From contig CAZCYZ010000001.1 in NCBI GenBank assembly GCA_964503465.1, positions 298,306 through 362,305 of the forward strand: a DNA stretch of 64,000 bases. The letters are read 5' to 3'. The position numbers and the translations under genes are program-made. The notes beneath the pieces were generated by a model. It saw only the letters and a list, made by a program, of their open reading frames with translations, made no database searches and had not been told where the DNA came from. This stretch comes from an uncultured Gammaproteobacteria bacterium. Lineage in GTDB: Bacteria; Patescibacteriota; Microgenomatia; UBA12405. Shown piece after piece: positions 17,153 through 64,000 of the stretch. How positions within the stretch are numbered: position 1 is the first letter of the stretch; each line of letters starts with the position of its first letter.

Positions 17153-17153
17153 T

Positions 17154-17561
17154 TTGCTAAAATATTTCATGTCCGATTGTGTTTTTTGTAAGATTGTTGC
17201 GGGGGAATTGCCGTCTTATAAAACCTACGAAGATGATTTGTTCTTGGCCTTTCTCGACATCAAGCCCCTTACTCCCGGTAACTCACTCCTAATCCCCAAA
17301 AAACATTTCCGTTGGGTTACCGATGTCCCGGAATTTGGTAAGTATTGGGAGGTTGCCAAAAAACTTGCCCTCAAAACTCAAACCATTGTCAAATCAGACT
17401 ACACCACCTTTTTAACCTTAGGTATGGAAGTACCCCACGCCCATATCAGAATTATCCCAAGATTTTACAATGATCAACACTCTACTGGGGTCAATCTTGA
17501 CAAAGTTGTTTCTATTTCACCAGGAGAAATGATTAAACTTTCTGCTAAGATAAAATTATGA
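17154..17561 (+). CDS. HIT-family (histidine triad) nucleotide hydrolase
   Basis: CVFCKIVAGELPSYKTYEDDLFLAFLDIKPLTPGNSLLIPKKHF and the histidine triad HAHIRIIP. The true start may be the ATG at 17169. Confidence 0.8.
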   Translation: MLKYFMSDCVFCKIVAGELPSYKTYEDDLFLAFLDIKPLTPGNSLLIPKKHFRWVTDVPEFGKYWEVAKKLALKTQTIVKSDYTTFLTLGMEVPHAHIRIIPRFYNDQHSTGVNLDKVVSISPGEMIKLSAKIKL

Positions 17562-19673: not shown

Positions 19674-19675
19674 AG

Positions 19676-28232: not shown

Positions 28233-28314
28233 ATATGTACAATAAATAAGATTACAGGCTATTATACCGAACCTTTGGTAGCTTGTCAACCACGGCTTTG
28301 CTATACTCTTAGAC

Positions 28315-47147: not shown

Positions 47148-48721
47148 AAATAAAAATTATTTTAGCCACATTAATTGTCCTTGGCACATTTTTGCGATTT
47201 TACCGTTTAGGTGATCTTCCTAATTCCTATACTCCCGACGAAATCGCTCAAGGGTACACCGCATATTCAATCATTAAAACCGGCCACGACGAGTGGGGTG
47301 ATCATAACTTTTTATCCCTCCGCTCTTTTGGGGATTTCAAGCCAAGTCTTCAAACCCTACTTATGATCCCTTTCGTCAAGGTTTTTGGTCTTACTCCATT
47401 TGCCATCCGTCTTCCTAATGCTGTTCTTTCTATCCTTTTAATCCCGCTTACATTTGTTTTGGCTCAAAAACTCCTTTTTAACTCTTCCGTTTCCATACTA
47501 GCTACTCTGCTAGTTACCCTCTCTCCCATTACACTTCCTTTGTCACGCCTTGCCCTTGAGGCTAATCTCTTGGTAATCATTAATCTGATTGCTGTTATCC
47601 TTTTTTTGACCAGTCACCGTTATTTCTCACTCTTATTTTTTAGTTTGAGTTTAATCACCTATCATTCAAGCAAAATACTATTTCCACTAATTTTTATCAC
47701 ACTAATTCTCTTCTACAAACGCAGTCGTCGCCTAGTTACTTTGGCTCTAATTTTTTACGTTACCGTCTCACTGCTAACATCTTTCAATCGTACCACTGAT
47801 ATCGCTATCTTTAATCCTACCGATTCTTGGTCATCAGTTTCTGAATCACGTTTCCAGGCTACCAAATCAGGCCTTCCTGACTCCATTAGTCGCATATTTA
47901 ATAATAAGGTCACTTATACATTTTTTCTTTTTGCACATAATTATCTTTCTTATTTTTCTCCTCAGTTCTTAGCCACCAGTGGTGCCGGCGAAACCACTTA
48001 TGGCATGATCCCAGGGCAGGGGATTTTAGGTATCATCCCTTTTTTGGGTCTTTGTTTAGCACTCGTTTTTCTTCTTAGAACTAAGAATAAATCACTCTTG
48101 TTTCTTTTTGTAATTGTTCTGATTACTCCCATTGCTGCCGCCTTGTCAAAAGGTAGTTATTCCGCCAATCGCCTAAGCTCCATCAGCCCCTACATTCAAA
48201 TACTCGCCGCCTACGGTCTTTTTCAATTATTTCAGCTTCGTCATCGCTGGCTCAGTCTACTTCTTGTGGCATTTCTTTCTTTTGAAATAGGAAATTTCCT
48301 GGTTACTTATTTCTTTCGGGCCAATCAGATCCTCGCCCCAGGCATGCTTTATGGCCATCGTCAAGCTCTCGAATACCTTCGTCAATATTCCAATTCAACT
48401 ATTATCTATTCTCGTCGCCTTTCTGAACCGCAAGCATATGTCAGTTTTTTTAACCAAGTTGACCCCTTTATTGTCCAACAGGCCTCAACCCAATGGCTTA
48501 ATTATCAAGGCAAAGGCCTTAAGTTTCTGGACCAACTAGGTGAATACCATCTTCAAAATTATCTTTTTAAAGAAATTAACTTTTCCTCCGATAGTCAAAT
48601 ACCCAACTCCATCCTGGTTGGTCGCCCAGAAGAGTTTCCCGGTGTCACCCCAAGTAAAATAATTTTCTATCCGGACTTCAATCATCTTAGCCCAGCCATT
48701 TATATCTATCACTCTCAATGA
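47144..48721 (+). CDS. GT-C ArnT/PMT-like membrane glycosyltransferase, tandem paralogue 2
   Basis: GTG start (GTGA overlap). YTPDEIAQGYTAYSIIKTGHDEWG...RSFGDFKP. Confidence 0.65.
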   Translation: MKIKIILATLIVLGTFLRFYRLGDLPNSYTPDEIAQGYTAYSIIKTGHDEWGDHNFLSLRSFGDFKPSLQTLLMIPFVKVFGLTPFAIRLPNAVLSILLIPLTFVLAQKLLFNSSVSILATLLVTLSPITLPLSRLALEANLLVIINLIAVILFLTSHRYFSLLFFSLSLITYHSSKILFPLIFITLILFYKRSRRLVTLALIFYVTVSLLTSFNRTTDIAIFNPTDSWSSVSESRFQATKSGLPDSISRIFNNKVTYTFFLFAHNYLSYFSPQFLATSGAGETTYGMIPGQGILGIIPFLGLCLALVFLLRTKNKSLLFLFVIVLITPIAAALSKGSYSANRLSSISPYIQILAAYGLFQLFQLRHRWLSLLLVAFLSFEIGNFLVTYFFRANQILAPGMLYGHRQALEYLRQYSNSTIIYSRRLSEPQAYVSFFNQVDPFIVQQASTQWLNYQGKGLKFLDQLGEYHLQNYLFKEINFSSDSQIPNSILVGRPEEFPGVTPSKIIFYPDFNHLSPAIYIYHSQ

Positions 48722-50247
48722 TTTTAATACTCTTCTTAATTGCTCTTATTCCTCGAATTATCTCCATCAGTTTCCTTCCTCCAAGCCTCAATTGGGATGA
48801 AGTTTCGCATGGTTACAACGCTTATTCCCTACTTTCTACCGGCAAAGACGAGTGGGGACACTCTCTGCCTCTTATTTTTCAAGCCTATGGTGACTACAAA
48901 CTACCACTATATGTTTATCTCACCACCATTCCGGTTGCCATTTTCGGGCTTAATCCTTTGTCGGTTCGTTTAATTTCAATTTTGGCTGGTAGTCTTCTCC
49001 CAATTGTTATCTATTTTTTCCTCAAAAAGTTCATTTCTTCAACTTCAGCCTTTATTACCAGTCTTGTGATTGCACTCTCTCCCTGGTCAATTTTTCTTTC
49101 CCGAATCGCCGTCGAAGCCAACCTTTTTCTTTTCCTCTATATCACCTCGCTCTACTTCCTTTCTCGACACCGGTTCGCTTATAGTACTTTTTTTTACGCT
49201 CTATCACTTCTAACCTACAACAGCAGCCGGGTACTTATATTTCCATATTTTTTAGCCACTTTTTTCATTGCCCGCCAACAGCATTATTCATTTCTAAAAA
49301 ACTTACCAAAATTTATCTTTCCTGCACTAGTATTCGTCGTTGTTCTCATTCAGTCTTCTTCACCCGCAGGTCAAGCTCGCTATCAGTGGGTCTCTATTCT
49401 TGATTCCGGTGCCATCAACCATATTGAACAACTTCGTCAAAAATACCCCAGAATTCTAGTTAACAAAGTTACCTATTTTACCTATCAAACAACCAAGAAT
49501 TATCTGGCTCATTTTAACCCTGCCTACTTATTCTTAAATGGGGGATCACATTATCAATTCAACATCCCTCAGTTTTATCTTATCAGTCCTCTACTTATAC
49601 CATTCCTCTTGCTTGGTTTTTTGGCACTCAAAAAATACCCCTTAATACTCTTCTTTCTTCTTGTTTCACCACTCCCTTCTGCTATTACCCGCGACGCTCC
49701 ACAAATTCTTCGCAGTCTAGCCTTTTTACCCCTTATCTCAATGGTCATTGGGCTTGGAATTAATCACAGTCTCAAAAATAAACCTTTCTTTTTCCTGAGT
49801 TTATTTTTTCTCTTTTTAACATTAGTCATTTCTCAAGTCCAATTTTGGTCAAGTTACCAAGAATATCGATATCAATATTCTCAGTCTTGGCAGTACGGTC
49901 ATCAACAACTAGTCAATAGCGTTAAATCAAAATACTCACGGTACCAAAAAATAATCGTCACCAAAAGATATGGTGAACCACATGAGTTTTTTCTTTTCTT
50001 CTGGCCATGGCCTCCTCAAGATTACCAAAAAAACAAACTATGGGACTATCATGCCAACTGGTACTGGATTAATGGTTTTGATAAGTTCACCTTCGTCAAC
50101 GATTGGGACATCAAAGACCTTTCTATCGCACCATCTACTTTATTAGTCACCAGTCCAGGTAATTTCCCGTCGGGAAGCCACCGCCTCCTCGAGACTATTA
50201 ATTTCCTTGACGGCCAACCAGCTTTTGATCTTATTAGCTATGAATAA
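48718..50247 (+). CDS. GT-C ArnT/PMT-like membrane glycosyltransferase, tandem paralogue 3
   Basis: ATGA overlap. NWDEVSHGYNAYSLLSTGKDEWG...QAYGDYKLP. The C-terminus has YGEPHEFFLFFWPWPP. Confidence 0.65.
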   Translation: MILILFLIALIPRIISISFLPPSLNWDEVSHGYNAYSLLSTGKDEWGHSLPLIFQAYGDYKLPLYVYLTTIPVAIFGLNPLSVRLISILAGSLLPIVIYFFLKKFISSTSAFITSLVIALSPWSIFLSRIAVEANLFLFLYITSLYFLSRHRFAYSTFFYALSLLTYNSSRVLIFPYFLATFFIARQQHYSFLKNLPKFIFPALVFVVVLIQSSSPAGQARYQWVSILDSGAINHIEQLRQKYPRILVNKVTYFTYQTTKNYLAHFNPAYLFLNGGSHYQFNIPQFYLISPLLIPFLLLGFLALKKYPLILFFLLVSPLPSAITRDAPQILRSLAFLPLISMVIGLGINHSLKNKPFFFLSLFFLFLTLVISQVQFWSSYQEYRYQYSQSWQYGHQQLVNSVKSKYSRYQKIIVTKRYGEPHEFFLFFWPWPPQDYQKNKLWDYHANWYWINGFDKFTFVNDWDIKDLSIAPSTLLVTSPGNFPSGSHRLLETINFLDGQPAFDLISYE

Positions 50248-51820
50248 AGAAAAATTTATCCTAATCGGCATTCTTCTTGGCTCAGTTCTAATCAGAACCT
50301 ATCGGGTAGGGGACACCCCCCCACTTCTCTGGGACGAGGCCGCTCTTGGTTATAATGCCTATTCCATTCTTCAAACCGCCCATGACGAACATGGCCAGTT
50401 GTTACCCCTAATTTTTAAATCCTTCGGCGACTATAAACCAGGAATTTATATTTACTTAACTCTTCCTTGTATTGCTATTTTTGGACTCAACCCTTTTTCA
50501 GTTCGCTTGCCATCTATTTTGTCTGGTTCTCTTATCCCCCTACTTCTATATTTACTTATTCGACAATTACTTCCTCGGCAAAGAAATCTCGCCACACTTT
50601 CAGCTCTGATTATGGTTTTTAATCCATTCAACATTCATTTTTCTCGAGGAGCATGGGAAACTAATATCCTTACCTTTCAAATTTTATTGGCCAGTTTACT
50701 TTTTTTCCGTAAAAAATACCTTACTTCAGCCATTATTTTTGGTATTTCTCTCTACACTTATCAATCAGCTAAGCTTTTAAGCCCCCTTATAATCTTAGCT
50801 CTAATCATTTCCACTCAAAGTAATCTCAGATCTATCTTAAATAAATTTTTCTTACCCCTATTGACCATCTCTATTCCCTTGATTTACGGGATTGTTTTTG
50901 GTCAAGATTCAAACCGCCTCAAAGTTATGAGTCTTCTCTCCTATCCTCGATCGACCACCGAAACTCAAACCATCATTACAGAATCAAATATCACCAACTA
51001 TCAACTTTTTCATAACCAACTGATTTTCTTTAGTCGAAATTTCTTTTCCCGCTACTTTAATCATTTTTCTCCTCGCTTTCTTATTTTTGAAGGAGACTGG
51101 CAAAACCCTCGCCATTCCGCCCCATATGTCGGTCTTCTTCTTTATCCTTCAATCGTTTTTTTTCTCATCGGTTTGTTATCTTCAGATTATCGATTACCAG
51201 CTACCAAGCTCTTACTTCTCTGGTTAATTTTAGCCCCTATCCCCTCAGCTCTTACCCGCGATTCCGTCTCCGCCGTCAGAGCCTTACCGCTTTCAATCCC
51301 CTCAGTCTATTTTATTGCCACCGGCATTAATATTTTTCTTTACCGATATAAGTCCATCACTATCTACTGTTTGTTGTTTACTGTCTACATACTTTCATTT
51401 ACCTATTATTCCGATCTCTATCTAAACCACATGGTTAAAAGATCACCCAAAGACTTTTTATACGGTTATAGCCAAGCTATAAACTATGTCATCCAAAATC
51501 AATCCAAATATCAACAGGTTATTTTTACTCAATTTTATGGCCAACCATATATCTATTACCTTTTTTACAGTCACTATTCACCATCCTCCTATCAACAACA
51601 AAATAGTTACAATCAAAACGGCCTTGATACGGGAGTTGTGTCCCAAATTGGTAATGTTTATTTTAAAGAACCCCAATTTAACCAAGTCGAACTTCAGCCA
51701 GGAACACTAGCCATTTTTTCCCACGACGAAGTTCTTCGTCAAAACATTGATCCCCAAACTCTTATCTCCCTAAGTCCTATTGGTGGTTATTCAACTTTCT
51801 ATGCCTATGAAAACCCCTAA
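50240..51820 (+). CDS. GT-C ArnT/PMT-like membrane glycosyltransferase, tandem paralogue 4
   Basis: The start was set at the ATG at 50240. LWDEAALGYNAYSILQTAHDEHG...KSFGDYKP. The C-terminus has YGQPYIYYLFYSHYSP. Confidence 0.65.
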   Translation: MNKEKFILIGILLGSVLIRTYRVGDTPPLLWDEAALGYNAYSILQTAHDEHGQLLPLIFKSFGDYKPGIYIYLTLPCIAIFGLNPFSVRLPSILSGSLIPLLLYLLIRQLLPRQRNLATLSALIMVFNPFNIHFSRGAWETNILTFQILLASLLFFRKKYLTSAIIFGISLYTYQSAKLLSPLIILALIISTQSNLRSILNKFFLPLLTISIPLIYGIVFGQDSNRLKVMSLLSYPRSTTETQTIITESNITNYQLFHNQLIFFSRNFFSRYFNHFSPRFLIFEGDWQNPRHSAPYVGLLLYPSIVFFLIGLLSSDYRLPATKLLLLWLILAPIPSALTRDSVSAVRALPLSIPSVYFIATGINIFLYRYKSITIYCLLFTVYILSFTYYSDLYLNHMVKRSPKDFLYGYSQAINYVIQNQSKYQQVIFTQFYGQPYIYYLFYSHYSPSSYQQQNSYNQNGLDTGVVSQIGNVYFKEPQFNQVELQPGTLAIFSHDEVLRQNIDPQTLISLSPIGGYSTFYAYENP

Positions 51821-53396
51821 GATATTCCTTACCATTATTTTTTGCCTTGCTACTTTTTTGAGACTGTATCATCTTGGTTTCTATCCTACTCTCAATCCTG
51901 ACGAGGCCGCCCTAGGTTACAATGCTTTTTCGCTTCTTCAAACAGGCAAAGATGAGCATGGTGTTTCCTGGCCACTTCATCTTAAATCATTTGGTGACAA
52001 CAAACCGGCCGGCTACACCTATCTTCTTCTTCCGTTTATCAAAATTATTGGCCTTACCCCATTGGCTGTTCGACTCCCCAATGCCATTTTTTCAATTTTG
52101 GCCATCTATATTCTATATAAACTTATTTTGCTTTTAACCTCAAATCAAAATCTTTCCCTTTTAACCTCATTTATTCTAGCTATCAATCCATGGCATATTC
52201 ACTTCTCTCGAGGAGCTTGGGAGTCATCGACTGCCCTGACCCTTGTCCTTCTGGGAATCTATTTTTTCTATCTTCATCTCAAAAATTTCAAACTACTCTA
52301 CCTTTCGATACTATTTTTTGTTCTCTCGCTCTACTTCTATCATTCTGCTCGTATTATTGCTCCACTTCTGCTTCTATCTCTATGTTTTGTCCATAAATCA
52401 TACTTCATAAATCACATTTCAAAGATATTTCTTCCTTTTGTTTTTGGCGCTATTCTGGTTCTTCCTGTCCTATTCTCTTTTCTCAAAAACGGTGGTGCCA
52501 CCCGTTTTAGCGGCGTTGGCCTAACGGCCGATTATGGCCCTATCTCGCGGGCGGAAGAACTTCTAAACCACCACATGAATATCAAGCTCGTCAATCGCAT
52601 TATTCACAACAAAAGAACCCTATATTTTATCTCCTGGGGGCAAAAGTATTTTTCTCATTTTGATATCAATTTTCTCTTTGTTAATGGTGATGAAGTTCCT
52701 CGCTCCAAAGTTCCCGAAATGGGCCAATTCTACCTTCTTGAATTTCCATTTTTACTTCTCGGAGTTTTTTTCTTGTTTAATTCTCCCCAATTTAAAACTT
52801 TAAAATTTCTCACCCTAAATTTGCTCGTTGTCTCCCCCCTAGCATCATCATTGACCTTCCAGGCCCCTTCCGCTCTTCGATCTCTACCTCTAAGTATCCC
52901 CCTAACTGTTCTCATTTCTCTTGGCTTATATCAAGCCATCAACCGATTTCCTAAAGTTAGTTACAGCTTATTATTCATAGGCTATCTTCTTTCAATTACC
53001 TATTATCTTGATTCCTACTACGTTCATTACCAAAAACGTTATCCCTTTGCCTGGAATTACGGCTTTGATCAAGTTACTTCCTATCTTCAATCCCAAAAAA
53101 ACAATTACCAAAACATTTATCTTACTAATAAATATGACCAGCCATATATTCTTTATCTCTTTTTCTCCCAATATCCGCCCCAACAACTTCATTCTCAAAT
53201 TAAGTTGACTCCACCCGACCAATTTGGTTTCTCCACTGTTCATCAAATCGATAATCTTCATTTTGAAAAAATAGACTGGAACAACATCCCCTCAGACTCC
53301 CTAGTTATCACGGCTGATGAACCCATCCCAATAGACCCCATCAAAATCATTAACTTTCCCAATTACGCCCCAGGATTTAAAATATATATCAAATGA
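51807..53396 (+). CDS. GT-C ArnT/PMT-like membrane glycosyltransferase, tandem paralogue 5
   Basis: The start was set at the ATG at 51807. LNPDEAALGYNAFSLLQTGKDEHG...KSFGDNKP. The C-terminus has YDQPYILYLFFSQYPP. Confidence 0.65.
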   Translation: MKTPKIFLTIIFCLATFLRLYHLGFYPTLNPDEAALGYNAFSLLQTGKDEHGVSWPLHLKSFGDNKPAGYTYLLLPFIKIIGLTPLAVRLPNAIFSILAIYILYKLILLLTSNQNLSLLTSFILAINPWHIHFSRGAWESSTALTLVLLGIYFFYLHLKNFKLLYLSILFFVLSLYFYHSARIIAPLLLLSLCFVHKSYFINHISKIFLPFVFGAILVLPVLFSFLKNGGATRFSGVGLTADYGPISRAEELLNHHMNIKLVNRIIHNKRTLYFISWGQKYFSHFDINFLFVNGDEVPRSKVPEMGQFYLLEFPFLLLGVFFLFNSPQFKTLKFLTLNLLVVSPLASSLTFQAPSALRSLPLSIPLTVLISLGLYQAINRFPKVSYSLLFIGYLLSITYYLDSYYVHYQKRYPFAWNYGFDQVTSYLQSQKNNYQNIYLTNKYDQPYILYLFFSQYPPQQLHSQIKLTPPDQFGFSTVHQIDNLHFEKIDWNNIPSDSLVITADEPIPIDPIKIINFPNYAPGFKIYIK

Positions 53397-54145
53397 CCAT
53401 TTCTGTTGCCATCGCCACTTACAACGAAGAGGCCAATATCCAACGCTGTTTAAAAGCAGTTTCCGACTGGGTCAACGATATCGTCATTTATGATGGTCAA
53501 TCTTCCGATAATACGGTTAAAGTTGCTAGAACTTTCAAGAAAGTCCAAATCATATCTGGCCCTAATCATCAAATTTTTCATATCAACAAACAAGCTGCCA
53601 TTGACGCCTGTAAAAGTGATTGGATTCTTCAGCTTGATGCCGACGAAGTTGTTACCCCACAATTGGCCACCGAAATCCAACAAATTATTCAAAATACCCC
53701 CCACAATGGTTTTTGGCTTAAACGCAAAAACTATTTTCTTGGAACCTTTCTTACTAAAGGGGGCACATACCCTGACTCCACTCTCAGGCTTTACCGACGA
53801 GGAAAAGGGGCACTACCCTGTCACGATGTCCACGAACAGGCTATTGTCGACGGTTCCACCTCCAGCCTCCAAAATGATCTTTTACATTATGATTCTCCCA
53901 CCTTTAGTCGCTTTATCTTTAGAAACGATCATTATAGTAGCATTCTTGCCACCCAAATTACTAATCCAAATTTTGTCAGTTATTTCTTTTTAAAACCATG
54001 CCTCACTTTTTTTTCCATTTTTCTCCGGCACCGAGGTTATATTGATGGTTTCCCTGGTTTTGTCTTTGCTTTTTATTCTGCTTTGCGATTTCCTTCGGCC
54101 TATGTTAAATACTGGGAAAACCATTATGCCAAAAATCGCCATTGA
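53393..54145 (+). CDS. GT2 glycosyltransferase
   Basis: ISVAIATYNEEANIQRCLKAV...VIYDGQSSDNT and QLDADE. Confidence 0.7.
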   Translation: MTISVAIATYNEEANIQRCLKAVSDWVNDIVIYDGQSSDNTVKVARTFKKVQIISGPNHQIFHINKQAAIDACKSDWILQLDADEVVTPQLATEIQQIIQNTPHNGFWLKRKNYFLGTFLTKGGTYPDSTLRLYRRGKGALPCHDVHEQAIVDGSTSSLQNDLLHYDSPTFSRFIFRNDHYSSILATQITNPNFVSYFFLKPCLTFFSIFLRHRGYIDGFPGFVFAFYSALRFPSAYVKYWENHYAKNRH

Positions 54146-55184
54146 CATATCGCCAACTATCGATGGTAACGCAGTTCGTGGTATTGGCTACTACACCAAG
54201 AATTTAGTCTCTGCAATTCAATCCGAGGTCAAAACCAACCCACACTACCACAATTGGCAAATCAATCTAATCACCAGTCCACAATCGTTAACCTCTAATT
54301 ATCAACTTATCCACTACCCATACTTCGATCCTTTCAAGCTTACTCTGCCCCACCGACAATCAGTTCCCACCATCGTCACTGTTCCCGATTTGATACCCAT
54401 CCAATTTGCCAAACATTTTCCGGTTGGTGTTAAGGGTCAAATCAAATGGTTAATTCAAAAAAACCAACTCAAAAAAACGACCTATATCATCACCATTTCT
54501 CACTATGTCAAACATGTCATCAGGAATATCATTGGTTACCCCAAGGATCGTATTTTTGTTACCTGGCTAGACGCGTCTTTAATGTCTCAGCCAGTTAAAA
54601 ACAACTTTAAAACCATGGTCCAAAAATATAATTTACCGCCTAAATTCATCCTCTATGTCGGTGACGTTAATTGGAACAAAAATATTCCCAATCTAGTTCG
54701 CGCCTGTTTATCTCTAGGCTATCATTTGGTTATCGCTGGTGCTTCAGCCACTAAATCCGTCCCAGACCATCCTTGGACCCAAGATATCATTTGGTTGCAG
54801 CAACAAAAATCTCCTTTCCTCCACCTTCTAGGATTTGTTCCAGATGAAGACAAACCTTATCTCTTCAAATTAGCCACCATTTACTGTCAACCGTCTTTTT
54901 CCGAAGGCTTTGGTATTCCCCCTGTCGAAGCCATGAAGTCTGGTTGTCCAGTTGCTTATAGTCAAGAAAGCAGTCTCCCAGAAGTCATGGATTTTTGCGG
55001 TGAGTTCTTTGATCCCTACTCTGTTGATTCAATTAAATCTAGTCTCCAAAAACTTTGGACCAACCAAAAGCTTCGTCAAAAATATATCCGGCTCGGTCTT
55101 GCCAGAGGTAAAGTTTTTGATTGGAAATATACCGCCCTTCAAACACTCGCCATCTATCAGCTAGCCTTATTAAATGAAAGATAA
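54126..55184 (+). CDS. GT4 (GT-B) glycosyltransferase
   Basis: The start was set at the ATG at 54126. C-terminal FSEGFGIPPVEAMKSGCPV. Confidence 0.65.
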   Translation: MPKIAIDISPTIDGNAVRGIGYYTKNLVSAIQSEVKTNPHYHNWQINLITSPQSLTSNYQLIHYPYFDPFKLTLPHRQSVPTIVTVPDLIPIQFAKHFPVGVKGQIKWLIQKNQLKKTTYIITISHYVKHVIRNIIGYPKDRIFVTWLDASLMSQPVKNNFKTMVQKYNLPPKFILYVGDVNWNKNIPNLVRACLSLGYHLVIAGASATKSVPDHPWTQDIIWLQQQKSPFLHLLGFVPDEDKPYLFKLATIYCQPSFSEGFGIPPVEAMKSGCPVAYSQESSLPEVMDFCGEFFDPYSVDSIKSSLQKLWTNQKLRQKYIRLGLARGKVFDWKYTALQTLAIYQLALLNER

Positions 55185-55977
55185 AAAACACTTTATCTCT
55201 GTTATTGTACCCATATATCAACAGGCCCGAACTATCCGTCAGGACCTTTATTCCATCTATGACACCCTCGAACAAATTCGATACGATTACGAAATTATTG
55301 CCATTGTTGACGGAACAAGCATCGATAATTCATACCAGGAAGCCAAGAAACTCAAACTCAAAAGACTAAAGGTTATCGGATATCCTCAAAATAAAGGTAA
55401 AGGTTATGCAGTCAGGTTTGGCATGGCACACACCACAGGCGATTACATTGCCTTTATTGATTCTGGAATGGATATTGATCCTAATGGTATTTCCATGATT
55501 CTAGAACACATGGAGTGGTATCAGGCCGATATTGTTGTTGGCTCAAAACGTCACCCGGCCTCACAAATCAACTACCCACTTCATCGTCGTATTATCAGTT
55601 TTGGTGCCCAATTAATTGCCAAATACCTACTTAACATTAATGTCACCGATACTCAGGTGGGGTTAAAGATTTTCCGCCGTCCAGTACTCGAAAAAGTTCT
55701 CCCTCGTCTTCTAGTCAAAACATTCGCTTTCGACCTCGAAATATTGTCTGTTGCTAACCGTTTAGGTTTTAGCAAAATTTACGAAGCCCCCATCAAAATA
55801 AATTTTGATTTCTCGGGATCTCATCTTCAGGGTAAATTCTTTCAAACCCTTCTTCTTTGCCTCAAAGATTCTTTGGCAGTTTTTTATCGCCTCCGGCTAC
55901 TTCGATACTACGATGATACCAGCAGAAGAAGGTGGAAATTTGATCCTCAACTTAAAATGCGTGTTAACATCGGTTAA
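55174..55977 (+). CDS. GT2 glycosyltransferase (DPM1/GtrB-like)
   Basis: ISVIVPIYQQARTIRQDL...IIAIVDGTSIDNS and FIDSGMDIDP. Confidence 0.7.
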   Translation: MKDKKHFISVIVPIYQQARTIRQDLYSIYDTLEQIRYDYEIIAIVDGTSIDNSYQEAKKLKLKRLKVIGYPQNKGKGYAVRFGMAHTTGDYIAFIDSGMDIDPNGISMILEHMEWYQADIVVGSKRHPASQINYPLHRRIISFGAQLIAKYLLNINVTDTQVGLKIFRRPVLEKVLPRLLVKTFAFDLEILSVANRLGFSKIYEAPIKINFDFSGSHLQGKFFQTLLLCLKDSLAVFYRLRLLRYYDDTSRRRWKFDPQLKMRVNIG

Positions 55978-56939
55978 TGTCACCACTACTTTTTTCAATT
56001 ATTATTCCCGTTAGGCTGAAAACTAATTATCTTCGCCAAACTCTCAAAAAACTCCAACAACAAACTTGCAAATCGTTTGAGGTCCTGGTCATAACCGACA
56101 AGTTGTCCGGCTCAGCCAACCCAGCTCAAAAACGTAATCTTGGTGCAAAAATGTCCCAAGGCAAATATCTTGCCTTCATAGATGACGACTCCTATCCTTC
56201 AAAAACCTGGCTGGAAAGTATCAATAAATTGTTTTCCCCTGGAATTGCCGCTGTTTGTGGTCCATGTCTTACCCCGGCCAGCGATAACATTTATCAAAAA
56301 GCTTCAGGGTTAGTTTGGAGCAGTTTATTGGGAAGTGGCGGTGCTGGCCTATATCGTAACAGTGTTCAAAAACCAATGTTCGTCGACGATTACCCGTCTG
56401 TTAATCTTATAGTCCGCAAAAATGACTTTACCGCCGTTAAGGGCTTTGATACCCACCACTGGCCCGGCGAAGATACAATCTTGTGCCTTAACTTAACTAA
56501 AAAACTTCACCAAAAGATTCTCTATCACCCATCAGTCATTGTCTATCATCATCGTCGTCCAGTTTTGATTCCCCATCTTCAGCAAATATCTCGCTATGCC
56601 CTACATCGCGGACACTTTGCCCGCGTATTTCCTGAAACCAGTTTTAAAATTGGTTATCTGATGCCCAGTTTGTCCGTAATATACTTCATCGTTTTTCCAA
56701 TTTTATTACCAGTTCTTCGACTCTATTACTTTATTCCTTTTATTGTCTATTTATTGCTTATTTTCTTTACTTTTATTTCTTTTCTTAAGAAAAACAATTT
56801 TTTGACTAGTATTTTGGCTACCATCACCATCCCCTTGACTCATCTTTATTACGGTATACTCTTTCCTATTGGCTTTTTCAAAAAAAACCTATCTTTCAAA
56901 GCCCACTCCACTAACAAACATGGCTACATCGGCGGTTAA
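55977..56939 (+). CDS. GT2 glycosyltransferase with C-terminal TM helices
   Basis: FSIIIPVRLKTNYLRQTLKKL...VLVITD and FIDDDS. The C-terminal hydrophobic segment has 2-3 TM helices. Confidence 0.6.
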   Translation: MSPLLFSIIIPVRLKTNYLRQTLKKLQQQTCKSFEVLVITDKLSGSANPAQKRNLGAKMSQGKYLAFIDDDSYPSKTWLESINKLFSPGIAAVCGPCLTPASDNIYQKASGLVWSSLLGSGGAGLYRNSVQKPMFVDDYPSVNLIVRKNDFTAVKGFDTHHWPGEDTILCLNLTKKLHQKILYHPSVIVYHHRRPVLIPHLQQISRYALHRGHFARVFPETSFKIGYLMPSLSVIYFIVFPILLPVLRLYYFIPFIVYLLLIFFTFISFLKKNNFLTSILATITIPLTHLYYGILFPIGFFKKNLSFKAHSTNKHGYIGG

Positions 56940-58368
56940 CTTTTTAATATCTATTTCGTACCCACCCCTATCATCACCCAAAGGTGTTCCCTTCCTTTCA
57001 CAAAACCGCCAATTTCAGTGGACCAATACAGACAATGTTATTTATCCCGTTGTTCCCGCCTACGCTGCCACCCTTCTTGTCAAAAATGGCTACCATGTTT
57101 TTTGGGATGATGCCATTGCTCAAAAACTTACCAAACAACAGTGGTTGGCTCGAATCATTAAACAACGCCCAAACCTCATTGCTATTGAAACCAAAACCCC
57201 AGTTATCAAAACACATTGGCGAATTATCAACACCCTTAAACAGAAGCTGCCTAAAACAATTATTGTTTTAATGGGTGACCATGTTACCGCTCTCCCCCAG
57301 GAATCTTTCCAGCATTCTAAGGTTGACTATGTTCTCACCGGTGGAGACTATGATTTCATGCTCCTTAACCTTGCTAATCACCTTACTAAAAAAACAAGTT
57401 TGGAACCAGGATTTTACATGTCAAGTTCCAACACGGGTCAATTCAAGCCTCACCATCATCTTGGTCAACTTCCAGTCCTTGACCGCCAGCTCACCCAATG
57501 GCAACTGTATTCTCGCCATAATACCAACTATAAGTACAAACCCGGTGCTTATATTATGTCAGCTCGTGATTGTTGGTGGGGCAAGTGCACCTTTTGTTCC
57601 TGGACTACTCTCTATCCTTCCTATCGCACTCTTTCTGTTAAACAAACTATCAATGAAATCAAAAACTTGGTTAAATTGGGTACTCGGGAAATATTTGACG
57701 ATGCTGGTACTATTCCAGTTGGCCCATGGCTTGGTGATCTTTGCCACCAGCTAGTTGATCAAGGACTAAATCAGAAGGTCACAATTAGTTGTAATATGCG
57801 TTTCGGTGCTCTCAATCAACAGCAATATCAATTAATGGGTCAGGCGGGTTTTCGTTTCCTTCTCTATGGACTCGAGTCAGCCAACCAAATGACCATTGAT
57901 CGGCTCAAGAAAAACATCAAAATTGACTGGATCAAAAGAGACCTAAAATGGGCAAAACAAGCTGGTCTCGAACCACACGTTACTATCATGATCGGTTACC
58001 CTTGGGAAGATTTATCTCAAGCCAAAAACACCCTATCTTTATCAAAGGAACTTTTTCGTCTTGGCCTAGTTGATAGCATGCAAGCCACCATTGTCATCCC
58101 TTATCCTGGTACCCCGCTTTTTGACTATTGTCAAAAAAACCAATTGCTTCTATCAACCAACTGGAATGACTACGATATGCGTCAACCAATAATGAAATCA
58201 CCTTTAACTCACCATCAGCTCCAAACATTAATTGATTCTCTTTTTAAATCAGCCTGGGAACCGAAGTTCCTTATTCGCAAAGTACTCTCTATTAGGTCAA
58301 TCGACGATATCAACCATCTAGTCAACTATGCCATTAAATTCTTACAAAAACTCCGTGACTTTAGTTAG
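56920..58368 (+). CDS. B12-binding-domain radical SAM protein (variant CX4CX2C cluster motif)
   Basis: The start was set at the ATG at 56920. N-terminal Rossmann-like B12-binding-type region (VPAYAATLLVKNGYHVFWDD). Then MSARDCWWGKCTFCSW, then a TIM-barrel-like region. Confidence 0.5.
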   Translation: MATSAVNFLISISYPPLSSPKGVPFLSQNRQFQWTNTDNVIYPVVPAYAATLLVKNGYHVFWDDAIAQKLTKQQWLARIIKQRPNLIAIETKTPVIKTHWRIINTLKQKLPKTIIVLMGDHVTALPQESFQHSKVDYVLTGGDYDFMLLNLANHLTKKTSLEPGFYMSSSNTGQFKPHHHLGQLPVLDRQLTQWQLYSRHNTNYKYKPGAYIMSARDCWWGKCTFCSWTTLYPSYRTLSVKQTINEIKNLVKLGTREIFDDAGTIPVGPWLGDLCHQLVDQGLNQKVTISCNMRFGALNQQQYQLMGQAGFRFLLYGLESANQMTIDRLKKNIKIDWIKRDLKWAKQAGLEPHVTIMIGYPWEDLSQAKNTLSLSKELFRLGLVDSMQATIVIPYPGTPLFDYCQKNQLLLSTNWNDYDMRQPIMKSPLTHHQLQTLIDSLFKSAWEPKFLIRKVLSIRSIDDINHLVNYAIKFLQKLRDFS

Positions 58369-59374
58369 TATCATTATCCCCACCCTCAATGCTGGTAGGG
58401 TCCTAATACCATGTCTCAAATCGATCGTCAAACAGAATTATCCACATACTGAGATCATTATTGCCGATGGTGGTTCAACCGACAATACCATTGCTATTGC
58501 CAACAAATTTAAAACCAAAATTGTTACCAATCAACTCAAGACCGCCGAAGCTGGTAAGGCCATCGGGCTCAAATATGCCAAAGGTCAATATATCGCCTTC
58601 ATCGATTCGGACAACATCCTCCCATATACGAACTGGCTGTCAACTATGCTAATTCCATTTAAAGACTCCGATATCGTCTGTACCGAACCAATCCGCTTTA
58701 CCTATCGTCGCAACGGGGGATTTATCGAGCGCTACGGTGCTCTTCTTGGGGCCAATGATCCTTATGCATGGTTCACTGGCGTTTATGATCGCTATAGTTA
58801 TCTTACCAACAATTGGACAGGTCTAAAATTAGATCAAATAGACAATCATAAATATATATCTGTCAATTTTAATAATAGTCAAATTCTCCCCACCATTGGT
58901 GCTAATGGGACTATCTTTAGGGCTAGTTTTCTCAAAAAGTACTTTTTCGGTCACTATCTTTTTGATATTGACATTCTTTCTTTGGCTTTACAGAAGAAAA
59001 ATACAGTTAAGGTTGCCAAACTAAAAACTGGCATTATCCATACATATTGTGAGTCATCAATTTCAAAATTCATTCGTAAACAAACCCGTCGTTTAACTGA
59101 CATGTATCAATACCAATCCATTCGCCAATATAACTGGCACCAAAAAAATAACATTTTCTCACTCGTTAAATCTAACTTTCGCTTTGCTCTCTACTCTATT
59201 CTCGTTCTTCCCGCGCTATTCGATTCTGTGCGTGGTTACCTCAAGAAAGCCGACTCGGCTTGGTTTTTCCATCCAATCGCCTGTTTTTTGTCTTTTATCA
59301 TTTATACCAGAGTAACCGTGGCTCATCTTCTTGGTATAAAACAGTATACCAGTAGACAACAATGGCAACAGTAA
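58328..59374 (+). CDS. GT2 glycosyltransferase
   Basis: VSIIIPTLNAGRVLIPCLKSI...IIIADGGSTDNT and FIDSDN. Confidence 0.65.
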   Translation: MPLNSYKNSVTLVSIIIPTLNAGRVLIPCLKSIVKQNYPHTEIIIADGGSTDNTIAIANKFKTKIVTNQLKTAEAGKAIGLKYAKGQYIAFIDSDNILPYTNWLSTMLIPFKDSDIVCTEPIRFTYRRNGGFIERYGALLGANDPYAWFTGVYDRYSYLTNNWTGLKLDQIDNHKYISVNFNNSQILPTIGANGTIFRASFLKKYFFGHYLFDIDILSLALQKKNTVKVAKLKTGIIHTYCESSISKFIRKQTRRLTDMYQYQSIRQYNWHQKNNIFSLVKSNFRFALYSILVLPALFDSVRGYLKKADSAWFFHPIACFLSFIIYTRVTVAHLLGIKQYTSRQQWQQ

Positions 59375-60468
59375 AACCAGGAATCTTAATCTTAAGTCCA
59401 TTTTTCTCTCCCAACATTGGTGGTGTCGAAACTCATCTTGATGATTTGGTTGCGGGTCTTCAAAATTTTTCTGTTTTTGTATTTTCTTACTCTCCAATTA
59501 CTACCCCCAATGTTCGTTATCAAATTTTTGAAAAACGAGGAAACCTCCAAATCGTCCGCCTTCCCCACTTTGGTAAAAATCTCTTCCACCAGCTAGAAAA
59601 ATATTCCATCCTTGACTTTTTATATCTCACACCATACCTTTTAATCTTCTCATTTTTATGGATGCTTTTTAACTCATCCAAAGTTAAGACAATTCATTCT
59701 CATGGTTTTAATGCCGCTTTTATTGGTAATCTCCTGGCCACTTTCTTTCGCAAAAAACATGTTACCTCAACTCATGCTGTTTACGAACACATTCATGGTC
59801 TCAGTTTAAAGTTAGTCGTTGCCACCCTTTCCGCCGTCGACCACATTCTCTGCCTTTCCCAAGCCTCACAAAAACAACTTTTAAGCTGGGGACTAAGTCC
59901 TGCCAAAACAAGCCTTTATCAATATTGGATTAACTTAAATAATTTTGTTCCAGTCACCACTCCACCCAAAAAATTTACTGTTCTTTATGTTGGCCGCTTA
60001 ATCACAAAGAAGGGAATCCGATTAATCCTTCAATCAGCCATCAATATTCGTTCTGCCCAATTTAACTTTATCGGTACTGGACCAGCAGAAGAAACCATTA
60101 GAAGGTTTTCCAAAAAATACAAAAATATTAATTTCACTGGCCCCATCCCCAATTCCTATCTACCTCAGTACTATCAACAAGCATCCATACTCTGCCTTCC
60201 GTCACTTTATCCCGAAGGTTATGGCCGAGTTGTCATGGAAGCGGTTGCGTCTGGACTACCTGTTATCGCCTCCAACACCGCTGGTCTCAAAGAAGCTTTA
60301 AGCTCCAAAGTTGCTATTCTTATCAAGCCAACTGTCAAAAATCTCACTTTGGCTATTAAAAAACTCCAGCATAAACAAACTTATAATCATCTTCGTCGAA
60401 ACTGCCGTCACTATGCCCTTGCAAAGTTTAGCTCCTCAAATATAAAATCGATCACCAGGTTCTATTAA
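59362..60468 (+). CDS. GT4 (GT-B) glycosyltransferase
   Basis: ILSPFFSPNIGGVETHLDDL, and C-terminal EGYGRVVMEAVASGLPVIASNTAGLKEAL. Confidence 0.7.
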   Translation: MATVKPGILILSPFFSPNIGGVETHLDDLVAGLQNFSVFVFSYSPITTPNVRYQIFEKRGNLQIVRLPHFGKNLFHQLEKYSILDFLYLTPYLLIFSFLWMLFNSSKVKTIHSHGFNAAFIGNLLATFFRKKHVTSTHAVYEHIHGLSLKLVVATLSAVDHILCLSQASQKQLLSWGLSPAKTSLYQYWINLNNFVPVTTPPKKFTVLYVGRLITKKGIRLILQSAINIRSAQFNFIGTGPAEETIRRFSKKYKNINFTGPIPNSYLPQYYQQASILCLPSLYPEGYGRVVMEAVASGLPVIASNTAGLKEALSSKVAILIKPTVKNLTLAIKKLQHKQTYNHLRRNCRHYALAKFSSSNIKSITRFY

Positions 60469-62231
60469 TGAAAGTCTTATTCATCCTTCCCTACCACAAT
60501 GCCTCGGCCGCCGTTTTCGAAAACGGTCAATGCCTTGAATATCTTCATGAAGAAAAGTTTACCAATATCAAAAGCCACTGGGGATTTCCCGGGTTGTCAG
60601 TAGACTATCTTGTCAACAAGTATTCCCTAAAATCTACTGACCATGTTGTTTTTTCCGGTAAACAGCTCCTTCTTCATACTCTTCCAAAACCATCCAGTAA
60701 CCTAGCAGAGGACATTGGCACCAATCCCCATCTCCGACAATTAACCAATTACGTTGAATACAAGACTAAAGCCAAAAAACTTTTTTTTACCATCCGCTCA
60801 ATCTTTCTTGACAAAATAATCTCTCCATTAGCCAGAAACCAAATGCGACAATATCTCTTAACAAGATACAATGTACCAACCAATAATACACATTTTTTTG
60901 ACCACCATCTCTGTCACGCCCTTTCTCCAGTTCATTTTTATAATCTTCACTCTCAAACTCACCCAATTTTAATCTTTACTATGGATGGAAGCGGGGACAA
61001 TTATTTCTCAAAAACTTTCATATATTATCCTGCCAACAACAAACTCAAACCAATTGCTAAGTCTCGTTTTGATTCATCTCTCGGACTGCTATATTCTGGT
61101 TTAACCCAATTTTTGGGGATGAAACCTTACGAGCATGAATACAAAGTTATGGGATTAGCTGCTTACCCTAACGATCCAAAATACTACCAAAACATTCTCA
61201 TTCGTCTTCAAAAAGATTTTGGTTATGATCAAAAGTCTCAAACATTTCAATCATCATTCAACACCAACTATTCATTTTATTATTTTAAAGAACATTTTGT
61301 TGGTCAAAGGTTCGATAATCTAGCCGCTGCTCTCCAAACACACCTCGACAACCTTATAACACTATGGATCACCACTACTATTAAAAAATACCACATCCAC
61401 ACCATCGCTTTATCGGGTGGGGTTTTTATGAACGTCAAGGTTAATAAGCTAATTCAAGAGCTCCCCTTAGTCAAAAAGGCTTATTTTATGCCATCTGCAG
61501 GAGATGAAAGTCTTGGTTGGGGAGCGGCATATCAAATTTTTTCTCAAAGAAAAATTAACACCCAGTCCAATTCTACTATGTTTCTTGGGCTTAATTATTC
61601 AAATCAACAAATCCAAGCATTTATTAAAAAAAATAGATTAGATAAAAAATTTGATATAAAGTATTTAAAAAATCCCAGCCAAAAAATTGCCAATTTACTT
61701 AGCCATCATCAAGTTGTTGCCTGGTTTACTGGAGCAGGGGAGTGGGGTGCTCGATCTTTGTGTCATCGGACGATTCTTGCCAATGCCTCTGATTTCAATT
61801 CTTATCACCAGGTCAATGATGCTATCAAAATGCGTGACTTCTGGATGCCTTTTGCCCCGACAATTCTCTTCGATTGGGCACCAAGATATATTAAAAACTG
61901 GCAAAAATTAAAAAACAAAATCAAAGAAAGTTCCAAATATATGATTACTGCATTTGACTCCACCCCATTGGCTCAAAAACACCTAATTGCTGCCATCCAC
62001 TCCAAAGACAAAAGCCTCCGCCCCCAATTGGTCGAAAAATCGGACCACCCAACACTCTATCGACTCCTCAAATATTTCGAAAAATATACCGGTATGGGCG
62101 GGGTGATGAATACATCTCTCAACATCCATGGTTATCCGTTAGTTGGCAACCTCAATCAGGCTATTTTCACCCTCGAGAACTCCCAGCTTAAGTATCTGGT
62201 TCTAGAAAACTATCTTCTTATTAAAAAATGA
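60468..62231 (+). CDS. NodU/CmcH/TobZ-family O-carbamoyltransferase
   Basis: 587 aa. N-terminal MKVLFILPYHNASAAVFENGQ...EEKFTNIKSHWGFP. HHLCHALSPVHF is the family His signature. A C-terminal YrdC/Kae1-like domain. Confidence 0.7.
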   Translation: MKVLFILPYHNASAAVFENGQCLEYLHEEKFTNIKSHWGFPGLSVDYLVNKYSLKSTDHVVFSGKQLLLHTLPKPSSNLAEDIGTNPHLRQLTNYVEYKTKAKKLFFTIRSIFLDKIISPLARNQMRQYLLTRYNVPTNNTHFFDHHLCHALSPVHFYNLHSQTHPILIFTMDGSGDNYFSKTFIYYPANNKLKPIAKSRFDSSLGLLYSGLTQFLGMKPYEHEYKVMGLAAYPNDPKYYQNILIRLQKDFGYDQKSQTFQSSFNTNYSFYYFKEHFVGQRFDNLAAALQTHLDNLITLWITTTIKKYHIHTIALSGGVFMNVKVNKLIQELPLVKKAYFMPSAGDESLGWGAAYQIFSQRKINTQSNSTMFLGLNYSNQQIQAFIKKNRLDKKFDIKYLKNPSQKIANLLSHHQVVAWFTGAGEWGARSLCHRTILANASDFNSYHQVNDAIKMRDFWMPFAPTILFDWAPRYIKNWQKLKNKIKESSKYMITAFDSTPLAQKHLIAAIHSKDKSLRPQLVEKSDHPTLYRLLKYFEKYTGMGGVMNTSLNIHGYPLVGNLNQAIFTLENSQLKYLVLENYLLIKK

Positions 62232-62857
62232 CCAACTATTACCACCGATATTGGCAAAAAAAACTTAAAAGCAAAAGTCAGGGAAGTCCACCTATCTGGA
62301 CCCAAGCAAACTTCAACTATCATTTTGATTTTGCAAAACCATACTTTGGATCAAAAATACTCGACATTGGAGCCGGTGACGGCACCTTCGACAACTATCT
62401 CCAATCAAAAATTAATTCCAATGTCATCTCGCTTGAGCCTACCCTACAGGCTATCAAACAAGGTCAAAAACTCTACCCCAATAACAAGTTTATAAACTCC
62501 TCAGCCGAAAAACTTCCGTTTTCCGCAAACAGCTTCAACACCGCCCTTCTTATTGAAGTTATCGAACACTTAATCGATACCGATATCGCTTTGTCAGAGA
62601 TATATCGAATTTTAAAACCAAAAGGATATCTATTTATCACCACCACTGATTTTAATTTTCTCAAAAAGGTTCTCCTTGCCGCCTTCGCTTGGGACAAATA
62701 TTTTTACCCCAATAATCCCCATATCCGCTTCTTTACTCGTCAAACACTAACAGAAATCTGCTCAACACATCATTTTAAATTAATTAAGTACCAATGGAAC
62801 GGTAGTTATTTTCACCTAATGCCCAAAGGTCAAATGGCTATCTTTCAAAAATGCTAA
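62228..62857 (+). CDS. class I SAM-dependent methyltransferase
   Basis: ILDIGAGDGTF and LKPKGYLFITT. ATGA overlap with the carbamoyltransferase. Confidence 0.6.
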   Translation: MTNYYHRYWQKKLKSKSQGSPPIWTQANFNYHFDFAKPYFGSKILDIGAGDGTFDNYLQSKINSNVISLEPTLQAIKQGQKLYPNNKFINSSAEKLPFSANSFNTALLIEVIEHLIDTDIALSEIYRILKPKGYLFITTTDFNFLKKVLLAAFAWDKYFYPNNPHIRFFTRQTLTEICSTHHFKLIKYQWNGSYFHLMPKGQMAIFQKC

Positions 62858-63972
62858 AACCAAAAACTATTTTTGTTGCCAACAACAATATCGGCATTGG
62901 ACTCTCTGGCGGTGATCGCATATTTCTAGAACTTGCTCGCTATTGGCAACCCAAAACCGATTTAATCATTATCGGTTCTGCCGAAACCAAAAGATTAATC
63001 AAAAGATACCGACTCCCCCCTATCACTTTTCATCAAACCGACACCATCAGCCGTCGTCAACTACTCACCCATCAGCTCCACCGAACTCTTAAGGCTATCA
63101 AATTTGTACTTAAACATCATCATCTCTTTCGAGAAACTCAATACATATATACTGCTTCAGACTTTATTCCTGACTTAATTTTTGGACCTTTAGCCAAGAT
63201 AATCAACCCGAACATTCATTGGATTGCCGGCTACTACCTCATAGTTCCGCCGCCATGGCAAAACAACACCTATCACCCCCTTTATTATTTTTCCCAGCTT
63301 ATTACTCGATCACTCACCAACCTAATGGCCAATACCGTTTATTTAACTTCTACACCCGATCAAAAGTTTTTTTCTCCAAAAAAAAGCATTATCGTTCAAG
63401 GTGGAGTTACCCCAGTCAAAAATACCACTAAACTCAAGTCAAAATATCAGGCAGTCTTCATCGGACGTCTCCACCCCCAGAAAGGAATCCTCGAGCTCGT
63501 CGACATTTGGCGTCTAGTAGTCAACCAAATTCCACTGGCCAAATTGGCTGTTATTGGTAACGGCCCGCTTCTACATCAAATCAAAAGAAAAATAAAAAAA
63601 CTTAAACTCCTATCAAATATCTCTCTTCTTGGCTTCCTCGACGGTCCACCAAAAAATAAAATAATTCGCCAAGCACAAATTGTTCTTCACCCGGCCACTT
63701 ATGACAGTGGTGGCATGGCCGCCGCCGAAGCCATGCTTTTTGGGCTGCCAGGAATCTCCTTTGACCTTCCCGCTCTCCTTACTTACTACCCCCAAGGAAT
63801 GATCAAAACTCCTTGCTTCTGTTATCAAAAGTTTGCCGACAATATTATTAACTTGTTGACCAACCCGGTGCTTTACCAAACAACATCCACTAAAGCAAAA
63901 AACTTAATTCATAAAGATTGGCTTTGGCCACAACGTGCCAACTTAATTTTTCAAAAGACATTCCTGCTATAA
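62851..63972 (+). CDS. GT4 (GT-B) glycosyltransferase
   Basis: VFIGRLHPQKGILELVD, and C-terminal GGMAAAEAMLFGLPGISFDLPAL. Confidence 0.65.
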   Translation: MLKPKTIFVANNNIGIGLSGGDRIFLELARYWQPKTDLIIIGSAETKRLIKRYRLPPITFHQTDTISRRQLLTHQLHRTLKAIKFVLKHHHLFRETQYIYTASDFIPDLIFGPLAKIINPNIHWIAGYYLIVPPPWQNNTYHPLYYFSQLITRSLTNLMANTVYLTSTPDQKFFSPKKSIIVQGGVTPVKNTTKLKSKYQAVFIGRLHPQKGILELVDIWRLVVNQIPLAKLAVIGNGPLLHQIKRKIKKLKLLSNISLLGFLDGPPKNKIIRQAQIVLHPATYDSGGMAAAEAMLFGLPGISFDLPALLTYYPQGMIKTPCFCYQKFADNIINLLTNPVLYQTTSTKAKNLIHKDWLWPQRANLIFQKTFLL

Positions 63973-64000
63973 TCTTTCAAAGTCCACATAACATTCTCTA

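Follow-up and report, generated by a model that had tools for sequence, protein, structure and literature searches.

The window analysed here, a 64,000-nucleotide stretch of contig CAZCYZ010000001.1 (GenBank assembly GCA_964503465.1, positions 298,306 to 362,305), ends with three open reading frames (ORFs) that are predicted to form a sugar-decoration module, all on the + strand: 60468-62231 (587 aa), 62228-62857 (209 aa), and 62851-63972 (373 aa). A first-pass annotation, made by a model from the sequence, had placed an O-carbamoyltransferase, an S-adenosylmethionine (SAM) methyltransferase, and a family 4 glycosyltransferase (GT4) at exactly these coordinates, and Pfam models match all three. 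The first ORF is the main subject of this report. Profile searches, comparison with proteins of known structure, and an AlphaFold2 model give good support to its prediction as a soluble class III (CmcH/NodU/TobZ-type) O-carbamoyltransferase with intact catalytic residues.

Both Pfam domains of the family were found in ORF 60468-62231 with HMMER, in line with the NodU/CmcH/TobZ assignment of the first-pass annotation: Carbam_trans_N (PF02543; 4.8e-30, 105.6 bits against a cutoff of 24, profile positions 9-345 of 346) and Carbam_trans_C (PF16861; 5.2e-46, 156.7 bits against a cutoff of 27, profile positions 1-170 of 170). Phmmer comparison to PDB sequences returned GdmN (6.7e-34), VtdB (7XB6, 7.4e-34), NovN (1e-30), and TobZ (2e-26). 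The AlphaFold2 model was built from an alignment of 31 homologues spanning 42-78% identity and has a mean predicted local distance difference test score of 91.4 and a predicted template modelling (TM) score of 0.91. Foldseek aligned this model over its full length to VtdB (TM score 0.83/0.82), NovN (0.81), GdmN (0.80), and TobZ (0.78/0.80), with E-values of about 1e-38. The next tier of structural matches, comprising TsaD/Kae1/Qri7 (E-values 1e-10 to 1e-7) and HypF (8e-7), is confined to the N-terminal domain, where a Kae1/YgjD-like fold had already been recognised. Transmembrane segments are predicted in none of the carbamoyltransferase, the methyltransferase, and the downstream GT4.

Alignment to GdmN together with the Foldseek matches supports a Kae1/TsaD-like transfer domain at residues 1-354 (60468-61529, +), and the Carbam_trans_C match supports a YrdC/TsaC-like adenylation domain at residues 408-586 (61689-62225, +). 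GdmN binds iron through H133, H137, D156, and D333, four residues conserved throughout class III, and uses H27 as its general base (PMC9633730). Their HMMER-aligned counterparts in the query are H146, H150, D173, D346, and H10, respectively. The first two form the H-x3-H metal-binding motif within HHLCHALSP, the signature reported at first pass, which translates directly from 60903-60929 (+). The His/Asp metal ligands, named by the same annotation as the point on which the assignment could fail, are thus all retained along with the base; the four ligands are invariant in 31/31 homologues, and position 10 is His in 29/31. Also intact, and invariant in the alignment, is the TsaC-family KxR/SxN tetrad as defined in PMC10321239 (K454, R456, S550, and N552), with the SxN part in the sequence NTSLN (62109-62123, +, direct translation). 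T549 is equally invariant; it matches TobZ T529, a residue with a hydrogen bond to the carbamoyl phosphate phosphate (PMC10321239). TobZ variants listed in the PDB are H14N, which affects the general base of that enzyme, S530A, and K443A.

The closest characterised enzymes by both sequence and structure are GdmN, NovN, and VtdB (PDB 7VYJ, 9S2T, and 7XB6, respectively), whose catalytic residues align one to one with those of the query; no paper was found for 7XB6. In GdmN and NovN, which bind hydrophobic macrolactam or coumarin acceptors, the C-terminus is extended by a dimerisation domain of roughly 100 residues (PMC9633730), whereas the 587-aa query has no such domain. Class III enzymes without it usually take polar acceptors such as tobramycin (PMC9633730). 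In this respect the query resembles TobZ, the tobramycin/nebramycin 6''-O-carbamoyltransferase (PDB 3VEN and related entries), which is of similar length (570 vs 587 aa), has the same Kae1-like and YrdC-like domains without a dimerisation domain, shares the His base, the H-x3-H/D/D metal site, and the KxR/SxN tetrad, and carbamoylates a sugar hydroxyl. The two differ in that identity is only about 20%, with the sequence match limited to query residues 282-586, and in that TobZ belongs to an aminoglycoside antibiotic cluster while the query lies in an array of glycosyltransferases and GT-C (glycosyltransferase C-fold) proteins. The gene already has a carbamoyltransferase annotation in public databases, as do its homologues at NCBI and JGI. 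Since neither the family, nor its mechanism, nor the carbamoylation of sugars is new, the assignment is a reasonable annotation and not a surprise.

The second ORF of the module (62228-62857, +) is predicted to encode a soluble class I SAM-dependent methyltransferase. It matches Methyltransf_11 (67.1 bits against a cutoff of 21.2, 2.2e-18), Methyltransf_23 (3.7e-18), and Methyltransf_25, and its glycine-rich SAM motif I reads ILDIGAGDG. No NCBIfam equivalog matched it at cutoff, and the best PDB match is the generic 2avn (1e-10). The third ORF (62851-63972, +) encodes a complete GT4 glycosyltransferase (GT-B fold, retaining type) by its match to Glycos_transf_1 (78 bits against a cutoff of 26.4, 8.4e-22). 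Its N-terminal domain matches no Pfam model, and its best PDB match is TarM, over the C-domain only (1e-8). Upstream of the carbamoyltransferase lie a second GT4 (59362-60468, +, 368 aa; Glycos_transf_1 1.2e-27, Glyco_transf_4 1.5e-12), a family 2 glycosyltransferase (GT2) that belongs to the same syntenic block (58328-59374, +; Glycos_transf_2 1.6e-23), and a B12-binding radical SAM enzyme (56869-58368, +; Radical_SAM 6e-13, B12-binding 3e-6). The best NCBIfam model for the radical SAM enzyme is the hopanoid-associated HpnJ (TIGR03471), which it matches far below cutoff (129 bits against 577.6). By these matches ORF 56869-58368 is best described as a generic B12-binding radical SAM enzyme, and its role may be that of a sugar C-methylase or rearranging enzyme.

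Genes of the module overlap at every junction. The upstream GT4 and the carbamoyltransferase share one nucleotide (TAATG at 60468, read from the DNA), the carbamoyltransferase stop and methyltransferase start overlap by 4 nt (ATGA, 62228-62231), and the methyltransferase and downstream GT4 overlap by 7 nt (ATGCTAA, 62851-62857). These overlaps were read at first pass as translational coupling of the trio. The overlaps are real and may reflect co-translation, but they are not peculiar to the carbamoyltransferase, methyltransferase, and GT4, because 28 of the 29 adjacent gene pairs across 28315-63972 overlap, a count in which some overlaps are inflated by the longest-ORF start convention. Two apparent overlaps, of 200 nt (31819-32682 / 32483-34099) and 104 nt (53393-54145 / 54042-55184), are most likely artefacts of choosing the first possible start (ATG at 32483 and TTG at 54042, respectively). 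Reading of the junction DNA revealed no Shine-Dalgarno-like sequence upstream. Scanning 53000-64000 for promoters and terminators gave no more sites than chance would (promoter-like, 27 found and 27.7 expected; terminator-like, 9 found and 8.3 expected). The downstream GT4 terminates within the window (TAA, 63970-63972) and the remaining 28 nt contain no start codon, so that the earlier description of a gene cluster running off the window end is not borne out by the visible sequence.

The module closes a co-directional 36-kb array (28315-63972) that contains about 11 GT2 and 4 GT4 glycosyltransferases, nine multi-transmembrane GT-C/PMT_2-like proteins, a B12-binding radical SAM enzyme, and a Wzx-type flippase (Polysacc_synt_3, 3.4e-43). 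The nine GT-C/PMT_2-like paralogues lie within 29016-35760 and 45549-53396, five of them head-to-tail in the latter interval; they share only 28-34% identity and are therefore taken to be old duplications. Two further array ORFs with multiple transmembrane segments have no Pfam match (37154-38839, 10 segments; 44300-45556, 7 segments) and could be polymerase- or ligase-like proteins. G+C content in the array is only slightly lower than in the rest of the window, no tRNA genes or Rfam matches were found in the 64 kb, and no integrase or other mobility gene is present among the annotated window proteins. The 'island' of the first-pass annotation is for these reasons best read as a functional cluster and not a mobile element.

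Positions 1-28 kb of the window hold genes for housekeeping proteins, namely UvrA, UvrC, three aminoacyl-tRNA synthetases, GreA, SecA, BipA, a release factor, and FtsEX. A SecA with 100% identity is encoded, together with the exact carbamoyltransferase, on one NCBI contig of 470,112 bp. The named relatives of the window SecA (72-75% identity) are Candidatus Shapirobacteria or members of the Microgenomates group, and the window is therefore taken as chromosomal DNA of a Candidate Phyla Radiation (CPR; Patescibacteria) bacterium. A sortase (7941-8648, -), a LytR_cpsA_psr (LCP) protein (22796-23806, +), and a DUF11-repeat protein (27618-28322, -) are typical of a Gram-positive-type envelope and may mark a site of glycan anchoring. 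The + strand is strongly C-rich across 1-64000, with a windowed GC skew of -0.09 to -0.40. Skew at third codon positions is -0.44 for the 50 '+' genes and +0.36, in coding orientation, for the 4 '-' genes; since these oppose each other, the bias tracks the DNA strand and not transcription. The C-rich strand, conventionally the lagging-strand signature, thus carries 50 of the 54 window genes.

Conserved gene order was found around the closest retrievable relatives of the carbamoyltransferase, which are 78% (locus L001), 59% (L002), and 57% (L003-L005) identical to it. In all five loci the order is GT2, GT4, GT2, GT2, B12-binding radical SAM enzyme, GT2, GT4, carbamoyltransferase, GT4, with GT-C genes before. 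The radical SAM enzyme is the most conserved syntenic partner; its orthologues score 704-768 bits in L001-L004, and the one in L013 scores 571 bits. Orthologues of the upstream GT4 stand just before the carbamoyltransferase in L001-L005 (423-551 bits), those of the GT2 at 58328-59374 are found in L001-L004 (352-521 bits), and those of the downstream GT4 lie downstream of the carbamoyltransferase in L001-L003 (50-64% identity). The methyltransferase was proposed at first pass as part of the module; it is present, but as a stable partner it does not stand, being orthologous in L001 only (63% identity). L002 has one methyltransferase of 28% identity after the GT4 and a further one upstream, encoded on the other strand. 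The methyltransferase of L003 shows no significant similarity; it separates the carbamoyltransferase from the GT4 and is likewise in reverse orientation. The class I methyltransferase is thus a recurrent but interchangeable neighbour, and the radical SAM enzyme and GT4 pair form the stable core.

Beyond the downstream GT4, L001, taken as a proxy for the sequence past the window, carries a weak GT4-like gene, followed by a convergent nucleoside diphosphate-sugar epimerase/dehydratase and a second B12-binding radical SAM enzyme; the end of the window gave no alignment to the start of the next L001 gene. Relatives carry a second, and even a third, radical SAM enzyme nearby. Just downstream of the cluster, L002 and L003 encode a CofD-family (2-phospho-L-lactate transferase-like) protein (18762-19754 and 16358-17344, respectively) and a large tetratricopeptide repeat protein.

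The best genome-database relatives, at 37-59% identity, come mostly from metagenome-assembled genomes (MAGs) of CPR bacteria (Moraniibacteriota, Saccharibacteria, WWE3, Peribacteria, and Gracilibacteria) and of DPANN archaea (Micrarchaeota and Woesearchaeota), with some MAGs under other labels, taken as deposited. Below 36% identity they come from diverse bacteria and methanogens. A tblastn search of plasmids returned relatives at no more than 30% identity, with true nodU genes among the weakest matches. No relevant literature on carbamoyltransferases in Patescibacteria was found. In four relatives (L018, L019, L020, and L022; Peribacteria- or Gracilibacteria-labelled and unlabelled MAGs) the carbamoyltransferase appears split into several ORFs under translation table 11, likely by UGA recoding (genetic code 25) and not by pseudogenisation.

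The query differs from characterised enzymes next to its KxR motif, where it reads K-M-R-D-F-W-M-P-F-A-P (61827-61859, +, direct translation). The same stretch is K-x-R-E-x-F-R-P-F-A-P in GdmN, NovN, and VtdB and KFREHFRPVAP in an annotated NodU. Met460 therefore replaces the Arg that precedes P-F-A-P, a residue conserved in the characterised enzymes examined (GdmN, NovN, VtdB, NodU) but not established as a defining feature of class III. TobZ also has Arg here, as mapped by motif spacing and not by direct alignment, and a role for it was not found in open-access text. Met460 is invariant in the 31-sequence alignment and present in nearly all of the 120 best word-index matches, while the prevalence of KMRDFWMPFAP among loci L006-L085 is biased, as IKMRDFWM was one of the seed peptides of the genome scan. 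In a seed-free re-test, for which HMMER was run exhaustively against 1.84 billion cluster representatives, R-D-F-W-M-P-F occurred in essentially all of 142 new best 50%-cluster representatives. The same search showed the family to be very large: at 50% identity it comprises 2,198 clusters with E<=1e-30, a number that rises to 7,431 with E<=1e-10. None of the characterised enzymes checked has the Met form. R-D-F-W-M-P-F thus appears, from sequence comparison, to be a clean marker of a large and apparently uncharacterised subfamily. Two loci also encode a second, divergent carbamoyltransferase paralogue (L008, 7297-8970; L011, 4851-6521; 168-180 bits) with the classical Arg motif, KHRE[ND]WRPFAP. 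Its gene precedes that of the Met-form enzyme by two positions, so that both forms occur in one cluster.

Taken with its surroundings, ORF 60468-62231 probably encodes a functional, soluble, cytoplasmic carbamoyltransferase whose acceptor is most probably a sugar of an envelope glycan. A sugar hydroxyl is the most plausible acceptor because the enzyme is predicted to be soluble, is adjoined by GT4s, and lies in an array of glycosyltransferases with a flippase and GT-C proteins. In the scheme established for the family, the YrdC-like domain makes carbamoyl-AMP, which the metal of the Kae1-like domain holds while a His base activates the acceptor hydroxyl (PMC6022934, PMC9633730). By analogy, the C-terminal TsaC/YrdC-like domain of the query would convert carbamoyl phosphate and ATP to carbamoyl-AMP, which would move to the Kae1-like domain and sit on the metal, and His10 would deprotonate the acceptor hydroxyl that receives the carbamoyl group. 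The acceptor sugar would be part of a cell-envelope glycan or glycoconjugate and would be carbamoylated at the cytoplasmic face, before export, as either a polyprenyl-phosphate-linked intermediate or a nucleotide sugar. The flanking GT4s, the upstream GT2, and the B12-binding radical SAM enzyme may build and modify the sugar unit to be carbamoylated, and the class I methyltransferase may add a methyl group to it. The glycan could be destined for a secondary cell-wall polymer, as the sortase, the LCP protein, and the weak resemblance of the GT4 to TarM hint, or could equally be a protein glycan made by the GT-C enzymes. The nearest precedent for a surface-glycan assignment is WapO (PA5005), a putative 7-O-carbamoyltransferase of heptose II in the Pseudomonas lipopolysaccharide core (PMC8005017). 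From its description, WapO is likewise a family member whose gene has glycosyltransferase genes around it and whose assigned target is a glycan of the cell surface; it differs in that its pathway, the Gram-negative lipopolysaccharide core, has no counterpart in the query array, and its own function is putative.

Several points weigh against this reading. The acceptor of every biochemically characterised relative is a secondary metabolite, DNA, or a Nod factor and not an envelope polysaccharide; the literature searched bears out the first-pass remark that carbamoylated glycans are well known in Nod factors and aminoglycosides but rarer in surface polysaccharides. The query carries the Met460 replacement, and no measured acceptor, donor, or activity was found for any member of the R-D-F-W-M-P-F subfamily. 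No source of carbamoyl phosphate was found in the window, and CPR bacteria have a reduced metabolism. The wider neighbourhoods, by contrast, speak for the reading: among 49 subfamily loci with at least 4 kb on both flanks, GT2 genes were found within 4 kb at 23, GT4 at 21, methyltransferases at 13, and radical SAM enzymes at 10, counts that are lower bounds given the sensitivity of phmmer. The enrichment of glycosyltransferases is modest, since the 5-9 kb shell is also rich in them (37 loci: GT2 12, GT4 11, methyltransferase 5, radical SAM 3).

We consider it unlikely that the product decorated by the module is not an envelope polymer but a small molecule for secretion, for example a glycolipid, a compound of the aminoglycoside type, or an oligosaccharide signal resembling a Nod factor. 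Characterised class III enzymes do modify secondary metabolites or lipo-chitooligosaccharides (PMC6022934, PMC5080398), B12-binding radical SAM enzymes are common in natural-product pathways, and ABC2_membrane and ABC_tran genes lie a few kb downstream in L002 and L003. The nearest operational analogue is the annotated nodABCSUIJ operon, which like the query combines a carbamoyltransferase, a SAM methyltransferase, and a glycosyltransferase, and whose logic (GT2, methyltransferase, carbamoyltransferase, ABC-2 exporter) is similar; there the NodS methyltransferase and NodU carbamoyltransferase decorate the non-reducing N-acetylglucosamine of a GT2-made oligosaccharide before ABC export (PMC5080398). 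The link to NodU made at first pass is nevertheless one of broad family only and not of close relationship. The NodU equivalog (NCBIfam NF041651) is matched at 66.7 bits against a cutoff of 1000, and identity to the annotated NodU is 24%, over the C-terminal half alone (residues 283-587). The methyltransferase shows little likeness to NodS (E-value 0.002, with 25% identity across 106 aa) and is not of that type, no NodA, NodB, or NodC homologues were identified in the array, and the host of the query is a CPR bacterium. The array is moreover without an aminotransferase, cyclase, polyketide synthase or nonribosomal peptide synthetase, acyltransferase, or deacetylase, and its nine GT-C/PMT_2 proteins and Wzx-type flippase, with the LCP protein upstream, are typical of envelope glycopolymer synthesis or protein glycosylation.

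Still less probable is an acceptor other than a glycan, for example the side chain of a protein, the head group of a lipid, peptidoglycan, or nucleic acid. The acceptor pocket is not readable from sequence, and the family does include a phage DNA 5-hydroxymethylcytosine carbamoyltransferase (PMC8670742), but no thymidylate-synthase-like or other DNA-hypermodification genes lie near the query. HypF, which carbamoylates a protein thiol, and TsaC/TsaD (Sua5/Kae1) share the two ancestral domains and the acyl-adenylate logic of the carbamoyltransferases (PMC10484737). HypF has additional acylphosphatase and zinc-finger domains that are absent from the query, which matches the HypF model (TIGR00143) at 16 bits against a cutoff of 466 and the HypF_C_2 sub-domain only weakly, below cutoff. 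In the TsaC/TsaD system, whose substrate is tRNA, the two domains are found on different polypeptides, and only the N-terminal domain of the query matches TsaD. The conserved adjacency of GT4 genes on both sides of the carbamoyltransferase, by overlap or one gene apart, also argues for a glycan.

That the R-D-F-W-M-P-F subfamily departs from TobZ chemistry in its handling of the donor or the adenylate, which would make 'carbamoyltransferase' only an approximate name, has very little probability in our view because the known contacts to carbamoyl phosphate and ATP are preserved: Met460 is invariant in the 31 homologues and about 140 50%-cluster representatives where GdmN, NovN, VtdB, and NodU have Arg, and CPR organisms may lack carbamoyl-phosphate synthesis, but the KxR/SxN tetrad and the TobZ T529 counterpart are conserved, the metal site and base are intact, and many members of the subfamily come from methanogens and free-living bacteria whose metabolism is complete.

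An envelope glycan as the target thus is the most plausible reading of the gene context, and an unusually decorated glycan is its prediction. A more specific proposal, which we regard as doubtful, is that the Arg-to-Met branch is a glycan-dedicated class III lineage in CPR bacteria, and perhaps DPANN archaea, that acts with a B12-binding radical SAM enzyme and two GT4s to build a carbamate-capped, methylated terminal sugar on the episymbiont surface, possibly with altered handling of the carbamoyl donor. The points of residual interest are the Met460 subfamily, the tight linkage to the B12-binding radical SAM enzyme, and the origin of carbamoyl phosphate in CPR bacteria. The CPR lifestyle depends on contact with host cells, and to our knowledge almost nothing has been established experimentally about CPR surface glycans. 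If the envelope-glycan reading is true, Shapirobacteria-like CPR bacteria would bear O-carbamoyl and methyl groups on an envelope glycan, and the module would open a first route to the function of an uncharacterised and very large carbamoyltransferase branch (about 2,200 50%-identity clusters at E<=1e-30).

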